64,000 nucleotides of DNA from Candidatus Poribacteria bacterium (GCA_965215015.1 OZ244042.1:3520001-3584000); one strand, 5' to 3'; positions 10,687 through 64,000 are shown, numbered from the stretch's first letter. Translations and numbers: made by a program. Notes: a model not told the origin generated them from the sequence alone.

Positions 10687-12666
10687 ATGCTTTGGCCAGG
10701 CCGGATTGATTATACCCAGGCAGTGGGTAATTTTCCACATATCAGTGTATTAGACCCGATACTTAGAGGGGGAACCCCCCGGAGAGGGACTAGCAACTAT
10801 CCAATAGTTTACTCCGGCGGCTTTTCGACTGTGTTTCCGGTTGAGGTGTTGTCGAACACCTATGCGCTGCGGTGCTGGATTGCAGACATTGGAGATGCTG
10901 AAACTCGGTATCAAGAAATATCAGACTATCTGAAGCAATGCCGTTTACCCTACTTTGTTGATTTTGCGTATGTTCCCGAAGGTATTTTGGTGAATGGTAC
11001 TAAGTATCCCATCACGCGCATGGAATGGGCGGAGGGGGAAACACTTTGTGGTTTTATTAAACACAATTTGCAGGACGCTGGGTGTCTGAAAACCGCAGCG
11101 GCAGAGTTTCAAAAGATGGTTGAAACCCTCCATATACACCAGATTGCACACGGAGACTTTCAAGATGGAAATATCCTGCTCAAGCGAAACGGAACTTATG
11201 TCGAAATCAAGTTGATAGACTACGACAGTTTGTTCGTTCCGACACTTCGTGGGCAACCTGATAATATTGTTGGACTTCCAGAATATCAACACCCCCAAAG
11301 AATAGCAGGCGGTGGGGGTGCCAACGAAAAGATGGATTATTTCTCAGAGTTGGTGATCTATCTTTCCTTGTTGAGTCTTGCGGAAAAGCCCGATCTCTGG
11401 AGTCAGTTTGGGGATCGAACAGAAAAAGGGTTGCTATTCACTGCCGAGGATTTCAGAAATCCAGACCAATCTGATGTCTTCCGAGAGCTTGAAAACCTGT
11501 CGTCAGATGTGAAACGGTTGGCTTCAAAATTAAAAGAATCTTGTAAGCGATCCGTTGACCAATTGGAACCCTTGGAAGCGATATTGGCATACAATCAGGG
11601 GCTCGTTTATCTTCAAAATAGCCGATATAATGAAGCTGTCATCGAGTTTGAAAAGGCGACAGGTCTTGACCCGAATTATAAAGAGGCACATCATGGGCTT
11701 GGCCTTGCACACTTACAGATGGGCAATCTTGAGGAAGCGGAAAAGGCGGCGGAAGCGGCTTTACAGATTGATTCGGGCTATCAACCTGCTCGTCAACTTT
11801 TAGATGCTATAAAAAGAAAATTCCCTGGGCCCCAGCCAGTACCGCCTTCCTCAAAGAGCGCGCTTAATCTCTGGCAGTACATTGCACCTAACCTTTGGCA
11901 GTACATCACTGGTACTTTAGCTTTTGTCCTATTGATTTGCATTGTGGCACTTGCAACGCAGATAAGCGCAAAAGATGAAGCTCTCCGCCAAATTGAGGTG
12001 TTAAACCAACAGGTCAAAACAGGGTCAGAACTCTATGCTATAATTTCAATGTTGCGGAATCAACTGACTGAACAGGAGAAGAAAACTAAGACTCAGTTCG
12101 CTATAAGCCAGCAATTGCGAAATGAAAAAGAGGAGATCCGTAGTCAAAACCAAATATTACAGAACGAGAATGTGAGGTTACGAGAGCAATTGGACGAACA
12201 GCACTCATCTCTTAATCCTTTCTCTAGAGATGACGAGCGGTTCCGTATGGCCTCTCCCCAAAAGATTTATAGTATTCCCCGAATAGTATTCCCCGAGAGA
12301 GGGGCTGCGATTTATAAAAATAATCTAGGATGCGATGCCTTTGACAACAACCAGTACAGCGAAGCTATTGAATTTTTTGACGACGCTATAAGGAGTGCCC
12401 CACAATCTGCAGTAGTCCACTACAACCTGGGTTGCACTTACTTAGCGATGAACAGGTATGATAAGGCCGTAAATTATCTTAACCGGGCGGTAGTCCTTGA
12501 TCCAAGGTTTAAAGAAGCGCACTACAACCTTGCCCTTGCTTTTCTTAGGCGCGGTTATCAGCTTGATCATCACACGGCGATAAATGTGGTTCAAGAAGCC
12601 TTGCAAATTGATAGGCACTATCAGCCTGCTCGCCAGCTTTTAGAGGCTATTGAACAGGTTGATTGA
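10687..12666 (+). CDS. TerY-P-type protein kinase fused to TPR - transmembrane helix - coiled coil - TPR
   Basis: SGGFSTVF, YALRCW, MEWAEG, HGDFQDGNIL, LIDYD, YQHP; TPR repeats on both sides of TM YITGTLAFVLLICIVALA; GGAG before ATG 10687. Confidence 0.85.
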   Translation: MLWPGRIDYTQAVGNFPHISVLDPILRGGTPRRGTSNYPIVYSGGFSTVFPVEVLSNTYALRCWIADIGDAETRYQEISDYLKQCRLPYFVDFAYVPEGILVNGTKYPITRMEWAEGETLCGFIKHNLQDAGCLKTAAAEFQKMVETLHIHQIAHGDFQDGNILLKRNGTYVEIKLIDYDSLFVPTLRGQPDNIVGLPEYQHPQRIAGGGGANEKMDYFSELVIYLSLLSLAEKPDLWSQFGDRTEKGLLFTAEDFRNPDQSDVFRELENLSSDVKRLASKLKESCKRSVDQLEPLEAILAYNQGLVYLQNSRYNEAVIEFEKATGLDPNYKEAHHGLGLAHLQMGNLEEAEKAAEAALQIDSGYQPARQLLDAIKRKFPGPQPVPPSSKSALNLWQYIAPNLWQYITGTLAFVLLICIVALATQISAKDEALRQIEVLNQQVKTGSELYAIISMLRNQLTEQEKKTKTQFAISQQLRNEKEEIRSQNQILQNENVRLREQLDEQHSSLNPFSRDDERFRMASPQKIYSIPRIVFPERGAAIYKNNLGCDAFDNNQYSEAIEFFDDAIRSAPQSAVVHYNLGCTYLAMNRYDKAVNYLNRAVVLDPRFKEAHYNLALAFLRRGYQLDHHTAINVVQEALQIDRHYQPARQLLEAIEQVD

Positions 12667-55305: not shown

Positions 55306-56727
55306 ATGTCCCAACAAAAACCCCATGTCTTGCTGCTAATCAATGACGAACATCGTCCTGACGTTTTGCCGATCGAAGGTGACCGGCAGATCCGCACTCC
55401 TACGTTAGATCGATTTATCAATGAGGGTGTATACTTTCGCAATGCGTACACACCTTCGCCCATCTGTGTGCCGGCACGGCAGAGTTTTATCTCTGGGCTT
55501 TATCCACGCAACTGTGGCAGCCTCAATTTTGGGGATCCGATGCCTACCGAGGTCCGAACTATTCCGGGGCATCTGGGTAACTATGGCTATTACTCATGTG
55601 CAGCGGGAAAGATGCATTTCGTGGGCAAAGATGTAATGCACGGTTGGCGGGAGCGGGTTGGTCGGGACATTGTGGGTGATAACGGCTATCCTTACCCAGC
55701 TGTTGATGATGAACACACCGCCCAAGTTCAGCGAGAGCCGGGGACCGGTTCAAAACAGAACAAGGTTATCCAAGAGATTCGCGATGCTCAACCCGGAATG
55801 GGATATTGGATGCTTCACGACCAATACGCTGTAGATGGTGCGTTGCTGTTCCTTGAGGAGTATTTTGTGGACGCCTCCTATGACCGGTACAAGCCGAATC
55901 CGCTGTGCATGGCGGTGAGTCTTTGGTGTCCACACTACCCGTATCAGTGTCCGCTTGACCTGTTTACCTATTACATGCAGCGTGTCGAGCCGATTATTGA
56001 GGAGCCGAACGATAAATTTGAGTGCAACGACTTCTTCAAGGTTCGCTTTGGCGAGGACGTGACCCATCGCCAAGCCCATCGTGCTACCGCTGCCTACTAC
56101 GGCATGATTGACTGGATGGACCAGCAGTTTGGTCGCGTCATCGAGAAACTTGAACACCTCAACGTTCTCGACGACTTCATCATCGTTTTCTTCTCTGACC
56201 ACGGTGAGATGCTCGGCACGAAAGGGCTATGGGAGAAACAGAGCTTTTTTGAGGCGTCGGTACGCGTGCCGTTCTCCATCTGGTATCCAAAGCGGTTTGG
56301 TCGTGAGCTACAGGTTATTGAACAGAATGTATCCTTGGTAGACCTGTTTCCGACGCTATGTGATCTGGTTGACGTCCCCGCTCCGGACGAACTTGACGGA
56401 CACTCGTTGGTGCCGCTCATCGAAGGATCCACTGATGACTGGCAGAACACAGTCTATAGCGAACTTTGGCGTGTCCTAAACGGTCGGTCCGTGATGGTCA
56501 AGCAGGATAGTCTGAAGTATTTCCGTTTCGATAATGGTGCCGGTTGGCCCGATCAGTTGTTCGATTTGTCGAATGATCTCGATGAACGTAACAATCTGGT
56601 TGACAACCCTGCTTATGCCGAAGCCCTCACAGGCCTGCGTGCTAAAGTGGATGCTCTGCCTCTACCACGACGCAAGGATGCGAATAATCGTTTTATTGAT
56701 CCGTATCGTCCGATGGGTAGGGATTGA
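55306..56727 (+). CDS. Sulfatase (choline-sulfatase-like, Cys type)
   Basis: DEHR, SPICVPAR (CxPxR), GKMHF, PHYPY, SDHGEMLG...WEK. Confidence 0.92.
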   Translation: MSQQKPHVLLLINDEHRPDVLPIEGDRQIRTPTLDRFINEGVYFRNAYTPSPICVPARQSFISGLYPRNCGSLNFGDPMPTEVRTIPGHLGNYGYYSCAAGKMHFVGKDVMHGWRERVGRDIVGDNGYPYPAVDDEHTAQVQREPGTGSKQNKVIQEIRDAQPGMGYWMLHDQYAVDGALLFLEEYFVDASYDRYKPNPLCMAVSLWCPHYPYQCPLDLFTYYMQRVEPIIEEPNDKFECNDFFKVRFGEDVTHRQAHRATAAYYGMIDWMDQQFGRVIEKLEHLNVLDDFIIVFFSDHGEMLGTKGLWEKQSFFEASVRVPFSIWYPKRFGRELQVIEQNVSLVDLFPTLCDLVDVPAPDELDGHSLVPLIEGSTDDWQNTVYSELWRVLNGRSVMVKQDSLKYFRFDNGAGWPDQLFDLSNDLDERNNLVDNPAYAEALTGLRAKVDALPLPRRKDANNRFIDPYRPMGRD

Positions 56728-56999: not shown

Positions 57000-58019
57000 A
57001 TGTCAGATTATTCAAAGACTTACCGCGTGGGTCTCGTTGGGAGCGGCGGCATTGCACGGGCGCACGGCACCGCCTGCCGAGCCCTTGACGGTGCTGACCT
57101 CGCTGCTATTTGCGATGTTTCTCAGGAGGCATTGAATCGTTACGGTGAACAATTTGGTGTCCCTAACCGATACCTCAACTTAGACGAGATGCTTGAGAAG
57201 GCAAACTTGGATATCGCCATTATCTGTAACTGGGGGGCATACCACGCTGAAACTGGTATCCGAATCGCCAAATCTCGAAAAGTGCGAGCCATCCTGTGCG
57301 AAAAACCGTTTACCAATAACGCAGCTGAAGCAAGACAGATGGTCGCTGCGGCGAAAGAGAACGGCATCCTGATCGCCGAAGCCTTCAAATTCCGCCATCA
57401 CCCGATGCATCTCAAGGCCAAGGAACTGGCAGATTCGGGCGCAATCGGCGATGTACTGACGCTTCGCAGTACGTTCTGTTCGGGCGGCAGCGGTGCCGGT
57501 CCTGAAACGCGAAAGCCGGAAGACAATTGGCGTTTCAACAAGGCAAAGGGCGGCGGCAGTGTCTATGACCTTGCCTGTTACTGCATCCATCATGCACGTT
57601 TTATCTTTGGCGCGGATCCGGTTCGAGTCTTTGCTGCCTCACAGCCGGGGTTAGAGGTTGATGATGCTATGTATATACTGCTCGTCTTCCCGGAAGACCG
57701 TACTGCACAAATTTCTGTTGGATTCAATACAGCGAGCGCACAGTACGTTGAGATCTGTGGGAGGGCGGGAATGCTCCGAATAGAAATCGCCTGGAACAAC
57801 GAAAATCGGTCTGTGGATTTAGAACACCGTACCCCTGATGGAACGGAACTCATTAATTTTGAGCCGATCCATCAATTCACAAATCAACTCGCGCACCTGT
57901 GTGACTGCCTTGAAACGGGGCAACCGCATCGGATTTCACCCGAAAACAGTATCAACCAGATGCGGGTTATTGATGCTGTGTTTGAATCAGCCGCGACGGG
58001 AAAAGCGGTTCGTATGTAA
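57000..58019 (+). CDS. Gfo/Idh/MocA family oxidoreductase
   Basis: GSGGIA, LCEKPF, FRHHP, GGGSVYDLACY. Confidence 0.9.
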   Translation: MSDYSKTYRVGLVGSGGIARAHGTACRALDGADLAAICDVSQEALNRYGEQFGVPNRYLNLDEMLEKANLDIAIICNWGAYHAETGIRIAKSRKVRAILCEKPFTNNAAEARQMVAAAKENGILIAEAFKFRHHPMHLKAKELADSGAIGDVLTLRSTFCSGGSGAGPETRKPEDNWRFNKAKGGGSVYDLACYCIHHARFIFGADPVRVFAASQPGLEVDDAMYILLVFPEDRTAQISVGFNTASAQYVEICGRAGMLRIEIAWNNENRSVDLEHRTPDGTELINFEPIHQFTNQLAHLCDCLETGQPHRISPENSINQMRVIDAVFESAATGKAVRM

Positions 58020-58032
58020 GGAGTGCATAAAG

Positions 58033-59130
58033 ATGGAAACGACGCAAACATTTCAGCAAGATAAGATTGAGCGACCCCGGCGGAGATTGCCGGTTATTGA
58101 TTGTGATGTGCATAACACCCTTTCTTCAGAAACGGTGTTATATCCGTATCTCTCCGGGCGTTGGCGCCGGCATCATCAGATGTTGGGAGCACCTGACCGT
58201 GTCGGAGGTTATGTCCCGCGCGGTATGCCCTATGGTGCGCGTTACGACGCTTGGCCCCCTTCTGGGCAGCGTCCGGGCTCAGATTTAGACTTTCTGCGGG
58301 AACAGTTGCTTGATTCGTGGGATATTGAGTACGGCATCCTAAACTGTTTGACGCCTGTTTGCGAGATGCCCAATTTGGAGTATGCTGCGGCATTTGCACG
58401 GGCGGTCAACGATTGGCAGATTGATGAGTGGCTGGATCCAGAACCTCGGCTGCGGGCGTCGATGATAGTTGCCTGCGACGACGGTGTATTGGCATCACAG
58501 GAGATCGATCGACTCGCCGGAGATTCGAGATTTGTCCAAATATTGCTGCTCGCCCGCACAATGGAACCGTTGGGAAGGCGTAAATACTGGCAGATGTACG
58601 AGGCTGCAGTGCGTCATGATCTGCCAATTGGGATTCACTTCACCGGCGTTGGCGTGGGCCCAATTACCGCCGTCGGTAAGCCCTCTCACTACATTGAGGA
58701 TCACGCCGGCATGACCCAGGCGTTTCAGACACAGGTGACCAGTCTGGTTTGCGAGGGCGTTTTTGAGCATTTTCCCACGCTCAAGGTGGTCTTAATTGAG
58801 GGCGGCTTTGCTTGGCTCCCACCCCTGATGTGGCGGCTTGACCGTGCCTGGAAGAAATTGCGCGATGAAGTGCCTTACCTCAAACGGTTGCCTTCCGAGT
58901 ACATCCGTGAGCATTTCTGGATGACCACACAGCCAATCGAGGAGCCGCCCAAACCGGAATACTTTCAACAGTTGCTTGAGCATATCAACGCGGATGAAAA
59001 GCTAATGTTTGCCACGGACTATCCCCATTGGGACTTTGATTCCCCAGATCATACCCTTCCGACAAATCTCGCTCCGGGGTTAAAGCGGAACATCATGGCG
59101 GAGAACGCTCGCGCATTCTATCGGCTTTAG
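58033..59130 (+). CDS. Amidohydrolase_2 family protein
   Basis: IDCDVH, IGIH, IEGG, FATDYPHWD, ENARAFY. Confidence 0.9.
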   Translation: METTQTFQQDKIERPRRRLPVIDCDVHNTLSSETVLYPYLSGRWRRHHQMLGAPDRVGGYVPRGMPYGARYDAWPPSGQRPGSDLDFLREQLLDSWDIEYGILNCLTPVCEMPNLEYAAAFARAVNDWQIDEWLDPEPRLRASMIVACDDGVLASQEIDRLAGDSRFVQILLLARTMEPLGRRKYWQMYEAAVRHDLPIGIHFTGVGVGPITAVGKPSHYIEDHAGMTQAFQTQVTSLVCEGVFEHFPTLKVVLIEGGFAWLPPLMWRLDRAWKKLRDEVPYLKRLPSEYIREHFWMTTQPIEEPPKPEYFQQLLEHINADEKLMFATDYPHWDFDSPDHTLPTNLAPGLKRNIMAENARAFYRL

Positions 59131-59302
59131 GAGTCGAGAGTGGAAGAGTGAGGAAGACATTACGAACAATTAGATCCCATTCTCATAGTAGTCGGCGATT
59201 TGTTGCTCGTTGAGGGATGGAGTTATAGACAGCTATAATGGGAACTCCTTATAATTGATGTTCCCATCTATAGAGAAATCCATGAACGAAGGTAATACGT
59301 GA

Positions 59303-59399
59303 TCAGGGGTATTTAGTTTGCGCGTTTTTAGCTCCGTTCGAGGCTATTGTGTTTATAGCTCCCAAATCCGACGTGAAACCGAGAGCTAAATAACCCTGA
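59303..59399. repeat. Short inverted-repeat-bounded element
   Basis: TCAGGGGTATTTAG / CTAAATAACCCTGA (13 of 14 match); related CTAAATAGCCCT near 41775. Confidence 0.5.
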
Positions 59400-59461
59400 A
59401 TGTATTATGCATCATACGTAAAAAATGGCAAGTTGATGCCCCAGTCGAATCCGAGTACACA

Positions 59462-60670
59462 TCAGAAAAACGAGCGAATCGCTGTTTTCTCTTGAATTTC
59501 AGCCCCGCCGTGTGCACTCAACCGTGGGCGAACGCGAATCGTGCTAACCACTTCTGTTTCGTCGTCAACGAGAAGTGCCTCCCCATGCCGGTTCAACTCC
59601 CGAATATAACCCTTTAAATCCCCTTGCATGTACGTCGCACTCAGTCTGTCTAGCGCGTGGATATCGTCCCAAGTTGTGATTTTATGCGCGATAATTAGAT
59701 CACATTGCGAAAGCAGTTCCGCGTCAATCGCGGACGGTTGTTGTGTAGCAACAATCAGGCTCAACCCGGGCTGGCGCCCCTCTTTTACCCATCGTATCAA
59801 CATCTCTTTACAAAGCGAAGCACGCCCTTGCGGCACAAATTGATGCGCTTCATCTATTGCCATCCAAACGCGAGGGAGCCGTGTCTCAAGCCCAAATTCT
59901 TCTCGCCGGCGCAGCCGGGTTCGTTCCGTAAACAACCGCCGCGCTACAACGTCTAATACGAGGTTACGTAACCCTTTTGTGCCTGCATCAAGCACACTCA
60001 AATCCAAAACGTTAATATGTTCCAGTGAAAACACATCGGTTAAGCGCATCGGTTCTTCTGAGAAAATTCCCCATTTTCCTGCAACAGCTAGTCGGTTCTC
60101 TAATGCTTCAATGGTAACCTCTTTAGCTCGTTTATCTTTGCGGAGGCGTTCAATGAGGTCGGTAATGGTGAAGGGTTCCCCGGTGTCGTGGAGTTCCTCC
60201 ACCGCGCGCCACATTGCTATTCCCATCGGTTCATTAATTCCTAAGTTGAAGAGCTCGCACCATGCGTCTGCTGAGAGGTCGTGCGCGTTAATCCATAGGG
60301 AGGTTACCTCAACGTTGTTCATTCGTAGTTGGTTAAGTACCTCTGCATCCCCAAATCGGGCAAGCGGGTTACCGGGTACAATCAATCTGATGGGAAAGGG
60401 TTGCGTTAGCAGCCCTGCCTGACGCACCTCATCCCATTGGTTTTCATTGGCTAGTGCCATGGTGTGATAAATCCCCATTGGGTCCACGATAAGCAACACT
60501 GCTTTTCCACGTTCCTGAGAAAACAATTCTTCAACAATTACCCCTAAAGTGTAACTTTTCCCGGAACCTCGCTTACCGCAGATAAAAACAGCGCGCGAGC
60601 CGGTTGCGCGGATATAAGCCATTTCTCCGCTTTCATAGTCGGTCCCGATTCGTAAATTCACTTCAGCCAT
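59462..60670 (-). CDS. HerA/FtsK-superfamily ATPase (DUF87-like), no HAS barrel
   Basis: GKRGSGKSYT Walker A, VDPMG, IDEAHQF Walker B, KEGRQPG, ATQQPS; ATG 60670 overlaps upstream stop. Confidence 0.88.
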   Translation of the reverse strand: MAEVNLRIGTDYESGEMAYIRATGSRAVFICGKRGSGKSYTLGVIVEELFSQERGKAVLLIVDPMGIYHTMALANENQWDEVRQAGLLTQPFPIRLIVPGNPLARFGDAEVLNQLRMNNVEVTSLWINAHDLSADAWCELFNLGINEPMGIAMWRAVEELHDTGEPFTITDLIERLRKDKRAKEVTIEALENRLAVAGKWGIFSEEPMRLTDVFSLEHINVLDLSVLDAGTKGLRNLVLDVVARRLFTERTRLRRREEFGLETRLPRVWMAIDEAHQFVPQGRASLCKEMLIRWVKEGRQPGLSLIVATQQPSAIDAELLSQCDLIIAHKITTWDDIHALDRLSATYMQGDLKGYIRELNRHGEALLVDDETEVVSTIRVRPRLSAHGGAEIQEKTAIRSFF

Positions 60671-61769
60671 TGAACGTCCTCCGAACATCCCAAAATGGTA
60701 CCAATGATTCTTGTGCTGAGATTCCACCGTGAAAACCCCATTCTGTCACCTTGCGGTTTTTCGCGATAACCTTGTCTCCAGTCAAAACGGTGTAGGTGCC
60801 TTCATCGCTTTTAAGCGTTAGCACATTATCCCCGGACGCGACATTTCCCTCAGTATATCGGGCCTTGGATTTTTCCCGTGCGAGTGGAACGGTGTCCTGG
60901 TTAGTATACCAAAGAATCCCGTGGTCGGCGGTGATAAAGAGTCGAAATGACTCGCTTGTCTCCTGCAGAACTGTGATAAGCGATACGATATCCTTTCTTA
61001 AATCGTCAAGAAGCGAGGAGACATTCGGACGTTCTCTGTAGGAATGACAAACGCTATCCAACCCCGAACGAATAATTTGAACGTAGGTTGGCATTTGCCA
61101 TTCGGACTTCTCTAGTTCTTCCAAAACCTCGTCAAACGTCGTCACGCGATGAAGTTGGGGCTCTGGAAACTCCGTGAAAAGCGCATCGGTCAATTGATTC
61201 ATGGAACGTTCCCAATACGAGAAGCCCAGCCGACGGACGTACTCTAGGTCAAAAAGCCTATGCGTTAAAACCGGCGAACCAATGAGCCGCTGCATTGCAC
61301 TTTCTGTGGTGCTCACCCCATCCACAAGGCACGGTTCCAACATCGCACCTGATAACCCCCATTCCGCTACCTCATAAAAGGATAACCCGTCAAAGACCAA
61401 GAGCACTACTATCTGTGGCAATTCCCGGGCAAGCCGCTCTGTAATTTCGGCAGCCACTTCGGATTGCTTGAGCAAATTGGTAGTCTTAAAACGACTCGGC
61501 AATGCCTCGTTGACCTGTGCTATTGTAGGAAGTGGGGGAAATTCAACCGTTGGGAAACCGAAAACCTGTGTCAATTCTTCTCTGTCTGAGGGTGATGGGT
61601 TCACAAAAAGCGTTTGATCGGCGTCACTTCCGTCGGATGAATCAATCCGTTCGCGCCACCCGGCAAGCGAGGTTGGACACCAGACATCTTCTAGACAGAG
61701 TTCCCACAATGTGCGATAGTTTTCGGGTAACTCTGTTAGGCAAGGAATAAACCTGAATGCTTCTAACAT
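60663..61769 (-). CDS. PglZ-like alkaline-phosphatase-superfamily protein
   Basis: LVFDGLS, VSTTESA, LDSVCH, ITADHG, FHGGISAQESLVP. Confidence 0.8.
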   Translation of the reverse strand: MLEAFRFIPCLTELPENYRTLWELCLEDVWCPTSLAGWRERIDSSDGSDADQTLFVNPSPSDREELTQVFGFPTVEFPPLPTIAQVNEALPSRFKTTNLLKQSEVAAEITERLARELPQIVVLLVFDGLSFYEVAEWGLSGAMLEPCLVDGVSTTESAMQRLIGSPVLTHRLFDLEYVRRLGFSYWERSMNQLTDALFTEFPEPQLHRVTTFDEVLEELEKSEWQMPTYVQIIRSGLDSVCHSYRERPNVSSLLDDLRKDIVSLITVLQETSESFRLFITADHGILWYTNQDTVPLAREKSKARYTEGNVASGDNVLTLKSDEGTYTVLTGDKVIAKNRKVTEWGFHGGISAQESLVPFWDVRRTFNG

Positions 61770-61770
61770 C

Positions 61771-62316
61771 TCATTCTTCTCTTTGTGCTAGGGCTTTGAC
61801 ATGCCGCCACAAACCGGAACGTTGTTGCACATAAGGATTGCCCTGTTCAAGAGCGAATCTGCCAAACTGTTGCTGCAGGAGCCTATCCATGTAGGCAATA
61901 TCTGCATCTATCAACGTTAACGCGATTTGATGTACTGCATCCTCAATTGGTTGTCGGGTAATCAGAATTACATTCGCCACTGCGCTGTAATCCTTACCGG
62001 TCCAGCGGAGGTCATCATAGAGGAGGCGCGCTTCTTGCCGAGTGTGCGGGGCGTTATCTATCGCAACAACTGAATTCGAGGAGACCTGCCTATCGTAACG
62101 AATTGACGATGAAAAATAGATAAGGTCGGCGCGGTGGTGCAGGTAATGCGCTAAGAAGGTTTTCCCGACACCGGGGTTGCCCCACAGGTTGAGATACCCC
62201 TCCCTCCGTTGAATTGCGTTGTATATGGCATCTCGCGCAGATTCTTGAGACGGGGTTAAGGTCTCGCCCGTTTCCGCTAATCGCAAGAGGTAGTTGTGAT
62301 ACGCTAGCCAATTCAT
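61771..62316 (-). CDS. Small P-loop NTPase
   Basis: GNPGVGKT Walker A, VVAIDN Walker B-like, ILITR; ATGA overlap with upstream gene. Confidence 0.75.
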   Translation of the reverse strand: MNWLAYHNYLLRLAETGETLTPSQESARDAIYNAIQRREGYLNLWGNPGVGKTFLAHYLHHRADLIYFSSSIRYDRQVSSNSVVAIDNAPHTRQEARLLYDDLRWTGKDYSAVANVILITRQPIEDAVHQIALTLIDADIAYMDRLLQQQFGRFALEQGNPYVQQRSGLWRHVKALAQREE

Positions 62317-64000
62317 CTTCTATGAACAGTTAAGTTGACTAAGTTGGCTTGATAGAGCTCTTCTAGAGATTCAAGAATCTCTTTAGTTGAGTTGAAGTTT
62401 CCATCGCTAAGGAGTCTAACAATCAGTTCGGTGAAGTCCTCCGTGTGTGTTAGCTTATTTCGTAACCTTTGCGCTTTTAGGCTTAGATCTGGTCTCAACG
62501 CGTCCAGTTCGCGTTCAATCTGTTTCCGCCTGTCAGCGAGGGGCTCCCCCTCTTTGAGTTTTGAAAGGAGTTTATCAACCCATTCGGACAATTTTATATC
62601 AACTTCTTCTGGCATAAATTCACTGCAGACATGCTGAAATCCGTCATCTAGTTTGCCTAAATCTTGGCGCAACTGAACTGCTTTCGCTTTCAGTGCCTCG
62701 GGAACGTTAAAAACCTCAATTGGCTTCAGCAGTTCGCGTTTCCGTTGATCGCTTTCGGCTTGTACCTTATCAACCATAGATTTCAACTTTTCTACTGCAT
62801 TTTCGCGTACTTTTCGGTAGCAGCCTTCACTATCGATAGGATTGAAATCTACCAGTGGTGGTGTATCAGACACGCGTCTCAACTGCTCTACAATGCTGGA
62901 TTGGTAGGCGATAAATGCGTCTTTCCTTCCCGTTAGCAACTGATCGAATTCATCCTTAATCGCTGAGCACAGCGTTTTAAAATGCTCATGGTTCCCCAAA
63001 ACGTCCTTGAGGCTTAACCGCTTCTCGGCGAGATGTTGCCTTATATCCCGCTGCACAATATCCAGCCGATCAATGAGATTCTGCACCGCCGCGTCTTTTA
63101 CACTGTCAGCCATAAGCTGTCCATTACGCTCTATTTCGCTGGCTAAAACGCGCCATCGCTCAAAAAGCAGAAAGAGTTCCTCCACATTTTCACCGTCTTG
63201 CCCAAGTCTGCTCATGTCAGTCTCAATTTGGGCACGAGCACCTCGCAACCGAGTGGCAGTTTCAATGGCATTCTGCGGCGTTACATCTGCTTGGTATTTA
63301 ACGATTTCTCTATTGCAGAGGCCCTGAATCGTTGCCTGAATCTTGCCAATATTCTCTGAAAGCTTTGTATAAGCCAATTTCACTTCGGGCTGGATACTTT
63401 TCTGAAAAAGAATCGTAGAAAACTCAGTTGTGGGATAACCAGTCGTCTGTTCTAAGACTCGCGGCACCTCACGGCGCAGTGTTTCCACCTGATTAATCTT
63501 CCGGCGGAGGTTATCATGCTCAGTCTTAACCCATTCTGCACAGTGATTCTTTAGGTTCGTCTCAACCGAATTCAGTTCCTGCCGCAATGCATCTTTCTGT
63601 ACTTCGTCGTTTTCAATGCTGATGGTATGCGCTAAGGCTTGCGCGGCGGAGAGGTTCTCGCATTTGAAGGTAAAGCCGTTTTCCTGTGCCAAGGCAACAA
63701 TCCGTTCCAAACATTCCAGTTTGGTTTTCTGTTCGGCAAAATTGATGAACGTCTCTACCAGATAGAGGTGCGATGTACCGGCTACGTCTTTTCTATCTGC
63801 TATCCCGCGTGCTTGGAGCGTTTCTATCAATGCGTCAATCTCTTCTTCAAGATACCCTAGTTCGGCGGCTTGCCTATGAATTGCAGAGAGTTTTAGAGCG
63901 TTGGCCTCGGCTGCGCCAATCGTGAGCGTCTCCGAAGTGTTCTTGAGCTGCTCAAGGAGGCGTTTTTCAAGTGGATGGAGGGTAAAATAGACAGCCACTC
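62313..64000 (-). CDS. C-terminal part of a large coiled-coil protein with probable winged-helix end (5' end outside window)
   Basis: At least 561 aa open to the window edge; helical/heptad composition; C-terminal LEELYQANLVNLTV. Confidence 0.75.
   Translation of the reverse strand, partial: VAVYFTLHPLEKRLLEQLKNTSETLTIGAAEANALKLSAIHRQAAELGYLEEEIDALIETLQARGIADRKDVAGTSHLYLVETFINFAEQKTKLECLERIVALAQENGFTFKCENLSAAQALAHTISIENDEVQKDALRQELNSVETNLKNHCAEWVKTEHDNLRRKINQVETLRREVPRVLEQTTGYPTTEFSTILFQKSIQPEVKLAYTKLSENIGKIQATIQGLCNREIVKYQADVTPQNAIETATRLRGARAQIETDMSRLGQDGENVEELFLLFERWRVLASEIERNGQLMADSVKDAAVQNLIDRLDIVQRDIRQHLAEKRLSLKDVLGNHEHFKTLCSAIKDEFDQLLTGRKDAFIAYQSSIVEQLRRVSDTPPLVDFNPIDSEGCYRKVRENAVEKLKSMVDKVQAESDQRKRELLKPIEVFNVPEALKAKAVQLRQDLGKLDDGFQHVCSEFMPEEVDIKLSEWVDKLLSKLKEGEPLADRRKQIERELDALRPDLSLKAQRLRNKLTHTEDFTELIVRLLSDGNFNSTKEILESLEELYQANLVNLTVHRR

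Follow-up and report, generated by a model that had tools for sequence, protein, structure and literature searches.

Organization of the operon

We analysed a minus-strand operon at the right-hand end of a 64,000-nt stretch of DNA (hereafter the window) from Candidatus Poribacteria bacterium (GCA_965215015.1, OZ244042.1:3520001-3584000). The operon encodes a PglZ-like protein, a HerA-like ATPase and four other proteins, and it very probably belongs to the gene set named BREX-Related Capture (BRC), after the BREX (bacteriophage exclusion) systems. The source is a closed 5.94-Mb genome (G000), in which the window corresponds to C1:3520001-3584000. A segment of 20 kb across the right edge of the window was analysed as L002 (window position = L002 position + 58000), and positions above 64000 are extrapolated.

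Seven open reading frames (ORFs) form one tightly packed minus-strand array, in which six constitute the core operon and the remaining one, at the 5' end, is an orphan (Table 1). From 5' to 3', the array comprises the orphan of 305 amino acids (aa), a 525-aa GNAT+TGT fusion, a 276-aa protein, a 1351-aa ATPase, a 181-aa P-loop protein, a 368-aa PglZ-like protein and a 402-aa HerA-like protein. The successive junctions measure -23, +14, +10, -4, +1 and -8 nt, the last five being those of the core genes. A preliminary description of the window, made from the sequence alone, had reported four coupled genes here, and base-by-base reading found all three of their junctions exactly as claimed: an ATGA overlap at 62316-62313 between the genes for the 1351-aa and 181-aa proteins, a 1-nt gap at 61770 between those for the 181-aa and PglZ-like proteins, and an 8-nt overlap (ATGGCTGA) at 60670-60663 between the PglZ-like and HerA-like genes, with GGAGGA preceding the HerA ATG. 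The HerA start at 60670 is supported because homologues align from residue 19-20 of the longer ORF.

The same description had placed a large ATPase and modification genes beyond the right edge, and extension of the contig indeed revealed the N-terminus of the 1351-aa ATPase and a TGT/Dpd-like gene. The four genes described earlier make up the 3' two-thirds of the six-gene operon, which extends about 6.8 kb beyond the window. What had been taken for the C-terminus (>561 aa) of a coiled-coil protein proved to be part of this ATPase: the C-terminal 561 residues are real and show an E/L/K/R-rich, G/P-poor composition, and the protein to which they belong carries N-terminal Walker A and B motifs. 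The view of the locus as a hybrid, BREX-related operon was therefore correct in both anatomy and inference. Scans with Pfam, PADLOC and NCBIfam detected no methyltransferase or PAPS-reductase domain in the seven ORFs, and ORF and family scans detected no integrase or transposase in the inserted block in which they lie.

Table 1. Features of the operon and its surroundings (window coordinates), and of the sigma-70/alpha-CTD-like gene in related loci (coordinates within each locus, marked L).
Feature	Position	Strand	Remarks
Flanking amidohydrolase ORF	57838-59130		Pfam Amidohydro_2 E 9.4e-41
Left end of inserted block	59131-59461		331 bp, amidohydrolase stop codon to HerA stop codon
HerA/FtsK-type ATPase, 402 aa, last operon gene	59462-60670	-	DUF87, PADLOC HerA and PDB matches
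HerA-like long ORF, 421 aa from GTG	59462-60727	-	402 aa if ATG at 60670
Compact PglZ-like protein of the alkaline phosphatase superfamily, 368 aa	60663-61769	-	Profile matches, invariant metal-site residues
Stand-alone P-loop NTPase, 181 aa	61771-62316	-	Walker A; weak Pfam matches
BrxC-like P-loop ATPase, 1351 aa	62313-66368 (L002 4313-8368)	-	561 C-terminal codons in window (62313-63998), rest past edge
276-aa protein	66379-67209 (extrapolated)	-	No family match; beyond window
GNAT+TGT fusion, 525 aa	67224-68801 (extrapolated)	-	Beyond window
Orphan 305-aa ORF	68779-69696 (extrapolated; L002:10779-11696)	-	Inside inserted block
718-bp upstream region	69697-70414 (extrapolated)		Two 11/12 sigma-70-like promoter matches; block ends at 70414
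Extra gene upstream of GNAT-TGT, gap -3 to +16 nt	L016:11-2869, L017:580-2853, L018:591-2942, L019:565-2616, L020:1407-3146		
Extra gene upstream of GNAT-TGT, gap -3 to +16 nt	L021:862-2931, L022:99-2174, L024:215-2605, L026:785-2545		
Extra gene 9 nt downstream of HerA	L027:12039-13388, L028:8477-9898		

BRC was defined computationally, in 45 taxa (Rakesh & Krishnan, Nucleic Acids Res 2026; PMC12839542). According to that paper, the components of BRC are PglZ, a DUF6079 BrxC-like ORC/Cdc6 AAA+ ATPase, an active STAND NTPase (a BrxB homologue), DUF4007 (a tripartite BrxA-like DNA-binding protein), HerA/FtsK, GNAT and TGT; HerA is universal, whereas GNAT and TGT are restricted to a subset of loci. 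The paper further describes a compact PglZ with an N-terminal 'inactive Swi2/Snf2' element, absence of DpdB and DpdC, an occasional GNAT-TGT fusion and DndH-HerA as the top structural match, and it rests the component assignments largely on structure models.

Predicted components

The 402-aa protein retains its assignment as a HerA-like ATPase, since it matches Pfam DUF87 (E 1.6e-11), PADLOC HerA (1.8e-23) and HerA chains in the PDB (Sir2-HerA 8xau, 7.7e-14; DptH 7es4, 3.5e-6). It also matches mad8 over the full model (1.6e-22) and the C-terminal region of DndH (1.3e-9). Its gene was found in all 27 related loci examined (truncated in L011; see below) and is the best conserved of the set, with 49-89% identity, and the Walker A (GKRGSGKS), Walker B (DEAH) and QQP motifs are invariant in 10 homologues. 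Walker A occupies residues 32-39 of the 402-aa form, compared with approximately residue 150 in 8xau, and alignments to HerA models begin at model positions of about 380 and above. Because only some 32 residues precede Walker A, an N-terminal HAS barrel could not be accommodated. Length and alignment thus support a protein that lacks this barrel, unlike the canonical HerA helicase, and to that extent the earlier suggestion of a barrel-less HerA stands.

For the 368-aa protein, matches were obtained to PADLOC PglZ (6.2e-5), NCBIfam BREX_PglZ_2 (1.1e-5, far under the family cut-off), Pfam PglZ (0.03) and Pfam Phosphodiest (8.6e-4). Among the 120 PglZ-like homologues listed, 3 carry PF08665. An hhalign comparison with five PglZ proteins of BREX size from the same phylum (743-824 aa) reached a probability of 75% (E 2.6e-5) over 141 columns, and this alignment spans the D..H, DHG and HGG motifs. 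A profile search of the PDB with the PglZ-like alignment returned only ENPP5 (E 0.23). The metal motifs, which had been described as intact, are invariant (D127-G128, D238..H242, D282-H283-G284 and H347-G348-G349) in all 17 aligned sequences, including homologues of 31-35% identity. Taken together, the weak but concordant profile matches and these residues support a compact PglZ whose catalytic residues appear to be intact.

The 181-aa protein, described earlier as a P-loop protein, contains the Walker A motif GNPGVGKT (residues 46-53). In 11 homologues, G46-T53, R97 and D87, the last at the end of a hydrophobic strand and Walker-B-like, are invariant. Pfam matches were weak (AAA_16, 6.6e-4; nSTAND3, 5.5e-3). 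By its position, this small NTPase corresponds to the component that BRC has as an active STAND NTPase (BrxB homologue). In the 1351-aa ATPase, the Walker A sequence GYGKT is found at residue 73 and the Walker B sequence LLILPDE at residue 200. Catalytic residues are invariant across homologues in PglZ, HerA, the small NTPase and the large ATPase alike. Neither the 1351-aa nor the 276-aa protein gave a Pfam, PADLOC or meaningful NCBIfam match. Among 120 listed homologues of the large ATPase, 3 carry PF10923, which we take to be the BrxC/BrxD P-loop family, and none carries PF19557 (DUF6079). In the 276-aa family, hints of a winged helix-turn-helix are scattered (HTH_12 in one member, MarR_2 in one member), and the best PDB match is Sso10a (E 0.074).

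Distribution and conservation of related operons

The 27 related loci were retrieved with the PglZ-like alignment from species-representative genomes, and the seven proteins were compared with them by tblastn. The titles of the loci assign 14 to Poribacteria, 8 to Latescibacterota and one each to Gemmatimonadetes, Ignavibacterium, the Firmicutes Desulfovirgula and Syntrophomonadaceae, and Halorientalis. All six core genes were found in one same-strand block in 25 loci, so that the gene set is kept together elsewhere. One of the two exceptions (L023) is a 3.8-kb contig with only PglZ and HerA. In the other, the haloarchaeal L029, tblastn identified four of the six genes, with ORFs of 274 and 158 aa at the positions of the other two; the shorter ORF can be aligned with the small NTPase family and retains the Walker A motif. 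Thus, the small NTPase is present in 25 loci by tblastn and in L029 by alignment, and 26 of the 27 loci have a protein of about 276 aa at the equivalent position (25 identified by tblastn, and L029 through its 274-aa ORF). The order of the small NTPase and large ATPase genes is swapped between Poribacteria and the other lineages. In four Poribacteria loci, extra DNA lies between the small NTPase and PglZ genes, which are 1 nt apart in the window, amounting to 3.25 kb in L006 (6750-10001) and 0.3-0.85 kb in L004, L012 and L015.

Within the phylum, the HerA marker was detected in 21 of 176 genomes, but the 19 congeneric genomes all lack it; the best HerA match (89% identity) belongs to another genus.

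A sigma-70/alpha-CTD-like gene adjoins the operon in 11 of the 27 loci (Table 1). In Latescibacterota and Gemmatimonadota, its product has two to four repeats of the RNA-polymerase alpha C-terminal domain (alpha-CTD), sigma-70 region 4 and a C-terminal domain of approximately 350 aa, and the product in the two Firmicutes loci contains sigma-70 regions 2 and 4. It may act as a regulator or as a sensor linked to transcription. The 305-aa orphan of the present locus overlaps the GNAT-TGT start by 23 nt, contains an internal low-complexity repeat and has a GC content of 0.42-0.44, compared with 0.47-0.53 in the operon. It gave no family match and no homologue in the 27 loci, and among the 176 phylum genomes it was found only in its own. 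Kinship of this ORF with the sigma/alpha-CTD family was considered on the basis of a 17-residue C-terminal motif (hhalign probability 2.6%), which was rejected as evidence.

Insertion at a variable chromosomal site

The genes on either side of the operon are metabolic (amidohydrolase, GFO/IDH/MocA oxidoreductases, sulfatase, CrtC-like lipocalin and NIPSNAP), and a classical defence island was accordingly rejected. All 20 genomes of the genus have the left flank, and 17 have the right one. Homology to the empty site of a genome of the same genus (G044) ends at the amidohydrolase stop codon (L002 1130, window 59130) and resumes at L002 12415, about 9 bases into the lipocalin ORF (first base of its stop codon at 12406). 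On the basis of these two points, the inserted block measures 11,284 bp and stands in place of a 24-bp spacer that separates the two convergent genes.

The same site was compared in 15 other genomes of the genus that have both flanks on one contig. The flanks are 23-32 bp apart in six genomes and 280-445 bp apart in two, and they enclose 2.1-8.1 kb of unrelated cargo in the other seven. Three of these seven (L078 in G051, L080 in G054 and L081 in G045) carry SIR2-APAZ (923 aa) together with a short pAgo (496 aa). PADLOC scores were 1067 and 489 bits for the G051 copy, which was the one scanned; the other two copies have the same ORF sizes and 87-91% DNA identity. A DDE transposase and a type II methyltransferase are additionally present in G051 only. 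The remaining cargo consists of a lone type I specificity subunit (HsdS) in G042 (L084), an integrase and a 1267-aa immunoglobulin-repeat protein in G053 (L079), and leucine-rich-repeat proteins in G049 (L082) and G048 (L083). The operon fits a horizontally exchanged defence cargo at this hotspot. Because some congeners hold pAgo/SIR2 and others nothing at the site, an immune role is supported independently of domain homology, and we consider it likely that the locus is a defence system.

HerA/FtsK ATPases also act in repair and segregation. A module that serves such DNA transactions, or the maintenance of a mobile element, could travel as non-immune cargo, and both the metabolic nature of the flanking genes and a block that contains neither integrase nor transposase would suit it. 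However, its distribution is patchy (21 of 176 phylum genomes and none of 19 congeners), the congeners hold pAgo/SIR2 and restriction-modification parts at the same site, the models matched as PglZ, HerA/Mad8 and DndH-like are all models of defence proteins, and decayed copies occur in several genomes. We therefore regard a non-immune function as very improbable.

With regard to the sulfatase, its gene lies near the operon at window positions 55306-56727 (+). In seven Poribacteria loci, a sulfatase gene is located directly downstream of HerA on the opposite strand (for example, L004:12381-13709 (-)), and a homologue is found upstream of the operon in L014. This proximity probably reflects the sulfatase-rich genomes of the phylum rather than a functional link.

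GNAT-TGT fusion and a possible mode of action

The GNAT half of the 525-aa protein matches Acetyltransf_7 (1.1e-12), and a PDB search with the full GNAT-TGT alignment returned GNATs only. In the TGT half, the motifs FDSGG (D251), LPD (D288), GFGSF, H-x-FG, FDS (D415) and H-x-C-P-F-C...H-N-L are invariant in 10 homologues. When the TGT half alone was aligned with the PDB, the weak top matches, archaeosine TGT 1iq8 and the DNA-guanine transglycosylase 7ui4, covered the FDS and CPxC...HNL regions; FDS fell on the FDS segment of archaeosine TGT and CPFC...HNL on its zinc segment CPVC...HNL. We take these segments to hold the catalytic Asp and the zinc site that TGT enzymes use, and on this basis the TGT looks catalytically intact. 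TGT was found in 26 of the 27 loci, the remaining one being the 3.8-kb contig. Fusion with GNAT is seen in the loci of Poribacteria, Latescibacterota and Gemmatimonadota. The TGT ORFs of L025 and L027 have no GNAT half, and another ORF (148/165 aa) is located immediately upstream. L029 encodes GNAT in a gene of its own, which overlaps the HerA gene at its end.

Elsewhere in its genome, the host encodes QueC (8e-77), a PTPS/QueD-like protein (1.2e-34), QueF (6.4e-31) and a canonical tRNA Tgt (2e-166, 554 bits), so that 7-deazaguanine precursors should be available in trans. A third TGT-family gene is located about 275 kb from the operon (G000:C1:3862653-3863483; ORF L033:739-2646 (-)) and encodes a 635-aa protein that resembles archaeosine TGT, here in a bacterium (Pfam TGT 3e-14; PDB 1iq8 2.4e-12).

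We favour, with moderate confidence, the view that the locus is a BRC-class anti-phage or anti-plasmid system, which was acquired as an 11.3-kb cargo at the variable hotspot and works by self-marking and a motor-nuclease pair. By analogy with Dpd and BREX, GNAT-TGT would exchange guanine in host DNA for a 7-deazaguanine derivative, with the base supplied by the queuosine pathway of the host (QueC, QueD-like and QueF), and the GNAT half might alter the base further. The modified base would serve as the 'self' mark of host DNA. The 1351-aa ATPase, the 181-aa NTPase and the 276-aa putative DNA-binder may form a BREX-like sensing complex that distinguishes marked from unmarked DNA. Unmarked DNA of an invader would then be moved by the hexameric motor of the barrel-less HerA to the compact PglZ phosphodiesterase, which would nick or cut the DNA delivered to it. 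A motor-nuclease pair of HerA and PglZ is plausible because their genes, the last two of the operon, overlap by 8 nt and because MAD7/MAD8 of MADS is described as an ATPase-nuclease module (PMC13662399). Self-marking by a deazaguanine DNA modification is a tentative proposal, which we would place slightly below an even chance.

Several observations weigh against this interpretation. With regard to the two components expected from BRC, neither the 1351-aa ATPase nor four of its distant homologues gave a HMMER match to PF19557, and the 276-aa protein and four of its distant homologues likewise gave none to PF13182 (DUF4007). Searches of the host's own genome with both families at E<=10 yielded nothing at the locus. 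When the ATPase was compared by hhalign with five DUF6079 proteins, a probability of 31% (E 5e-4) was obtained over the N-terminal 197 columns; the alignment is collinear and includes both Walker motifs, and the lengths are 1351 aa vs 1347-1476 aa. When 50 of the 115 representatives found for the 276-aa family were scanned, none matched DUF4007, and hhalign of this family with eight true DUF4007 proteins gave a probability of 2.4%. The DUF6079 and DUF4007 proteins used in these comparisons were taken from the same phylum. For PglZ, the evidence is at the profile level and covers the C-terminal half of the domain, and no recognisable nuclease was detected in the operon by the Pfam, PADLOC and NCBIfam scans. 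The Pfam TGT match is at the cut-off (5.5e-6; 26.1 bits vs 26.3 bits), and a six-frame search of the genome scored 27.4 bits, above it. All PDB matches of the TGT half have E>=0.11 (archaeosine TGT 1iq8, 0.11; DNA-guanine transglycosylase 7ui4, 0.42), and NCBIfam DpdA (NF041059) was matched at E 0.089 with 11.6 bits, compared with a cut-off of 200 bits. No DpdB or DpdC homologue was detected in the operon by general Pfam, PADLOC and NCBIfam scans of the block, the rest of the genome not having been searched for them. Furthermore, the flanks are metabolic instead of a classical defence island, several related copies look decayed (short ORFs in L007, L008, L011 and L020; internal stops in G069, G105 and G167), and a full-text literature search, which yielded only the BRC paper and its preprint, found no experimental work on any BRC system.

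An alternative is a 'capture'-type defence that has no epigenetic self-mark. In such a system, HerA and the BREX-like complex would intercept replicating or entering foreign DNA, and PglZ would degrade it. We consider this unlikely, and equally so the role it would leave to GNAT-TGT, which would then act, for example, on tRNA, have a regulatory function by acetylating a protein or a small molecule, or serve as a sensor. The operon indeed has no DpdB or DpdC, its TGT scores no closer to DpdA (by NF041059 and 7ui4) than to tRNA enzymes (by 1iq8), and GNAT and TGT, as stated in the BRC paper, are found in only a subset of loci, compared with the universal HerA (PMC12839542). On the other hand, in the clade studied here TGT is missing only from the 3.8-kb contig, and GNAT is either fused to it or in the same block. 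Moreover, the catalytic and zinc-site residues of TGT are invariant, and the genome already possesses a canonical tRNA Tgt, with its score of 554 bits.

Some phages carry deazaguanine DNA. It might be supposed that GNAT-TGT attacks the invader itself, by exchanging or removing bases in phage DNA or RNA, for example in phages of this kind, and that HerA and PglZ process the resulting lesions. PglZ and HerA are the only candidate effectors in an operon from which a classical nuclease is absent, and in other genomes the hotspot houses effector-type systems such as SIR2-APAZ/pAgo. But nothing in our analysis points in this direction, which would be unprecedented for the TGT family, and the gene order and tight coupling are like those of modification-restriction layouts; we judge such an attack to be improbable.

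A more specific version of the marking model can be put forward as a speculation that is rather doubtful: GNAT-TGT may write a DNA base that has not been described, read by the BREX-like ATPase/PglZ complex and the HerA motor, with a tie to transcription through the sigma-70/alpha-CTD-like protein in some lineages. A candidate would be N-acylated 7-aminomethyl-7-deazaguanine, made from the preQ1 of the host, in whose genome QueF is encoded.

BRC is known only from comparative genomics. The present locus provides a clean, complete and single-copy example in a closed genome, with predicted catalytic residues intact and insertion boundaries that are exact to the base. Our analysis adds the insertion at a hotspot, the precursor pathway in trans, the lack of a DUF6079 or DUF4007 match and the sigma-70/alpha-CTD-like companion gene. 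Owing to the queuosine pathway in trans, the idea of deazaguanine marking is directly testable in E. coli. If true, the existence of a novel DNA modification, or of a nuclease-motor pair made up of PglZ and HerA, would bear on how BREX-type systems stop phage DNA.

Comparison with known defence systems

The operon shares with MADS (Mad7-Mad8) and with DndFGH/DptH a HerA-like protein, which matches mad8 from end to end and the C-terminal region of DndH. In contrast to these systems, the other six ORFs gave no mad or dnd match, and neither a methyltransferase nor a phosphorothioation gene is present. A variant of MADS, which has an eight-gene mad1-8 set with a methyltransferase, was rejected because only mad8 was matched.

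Similar to Dpd (DpdA/B/C plus DpdD-K), the locus has a TGT-superfamily enzyme in a restriction-like operon and a preQ0 pathway in the host. It differs in its low DpdA score, the absence of DpdB and DpdC, a block without preQ0 genes, the fusion of GNAT to TGT, and a restriction side that is BREX/HerA-like rather than DpdD-K. A Dpd variant was rejected on the failed DpdA cut-off and the lack of DpdB and DpdC in the block.

With classical BREX (types 1-6), the locus has in common a PglZ-type phosphodiesterase, a putative BrxC-like ATPase of similar length with a collinear N-terminus, and a small NTPase in the position of BrxB. However, PglX/BrxX methyltransferase, PAPS reductase and BrxL are lacking, PglZ has 368 aa compared with 743-824 aa in the five proteins examined, and HerA and GNAT-TGT are present. 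BREX type 4 was rejected because no PAPS reductase was detected and because the true DUF4007 genes of the phylum lie elsewhere in their genomes, with none in this one. These genes (approximately 310-340 aa, up to 320 bits) were found in 108 of the 176 phylum genomes, which suggests that Ssp/BREX-type-4-like systems are widespread in the phylum.

BRC is the system that the locus resembles gene for gene. It should be noted that the ATPase and the 276-aa protein have no Pfam DUF6079 or DUF4007 match here, that this copy carries the orphan 305-aa ORF, and that the sigma-70/alpha-CTD-like gene of 11 related loci is not among the seven components given in the accessible part of the BRC paper. On the other hand, the same seven domains appear to recur in the same kind of operon. 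These include a compact PglZ, a putative BrxC-like ATPase of approximately 1350 aa, a small, probably active P-loop NTPase, a protein of approximately 280 aa in the position of the DNA-binder, a barrel-less HerA/FtsK with DndH-like affinity, and GNAT and TGT, which may be fused, again without DpdB or DpdC, and the spread is likewise sparse and phylogenetically wide, including archaea. Because of this gene-set identity the locus is filed under BRC. The preliminary description had proposed it as a candidate new system, while foreseeing that it might coincide with a variant described only computationally; since the gene set matches BRC, the locus is not a new kind of system and takes its place as a complete poribacterial representative of a named one.

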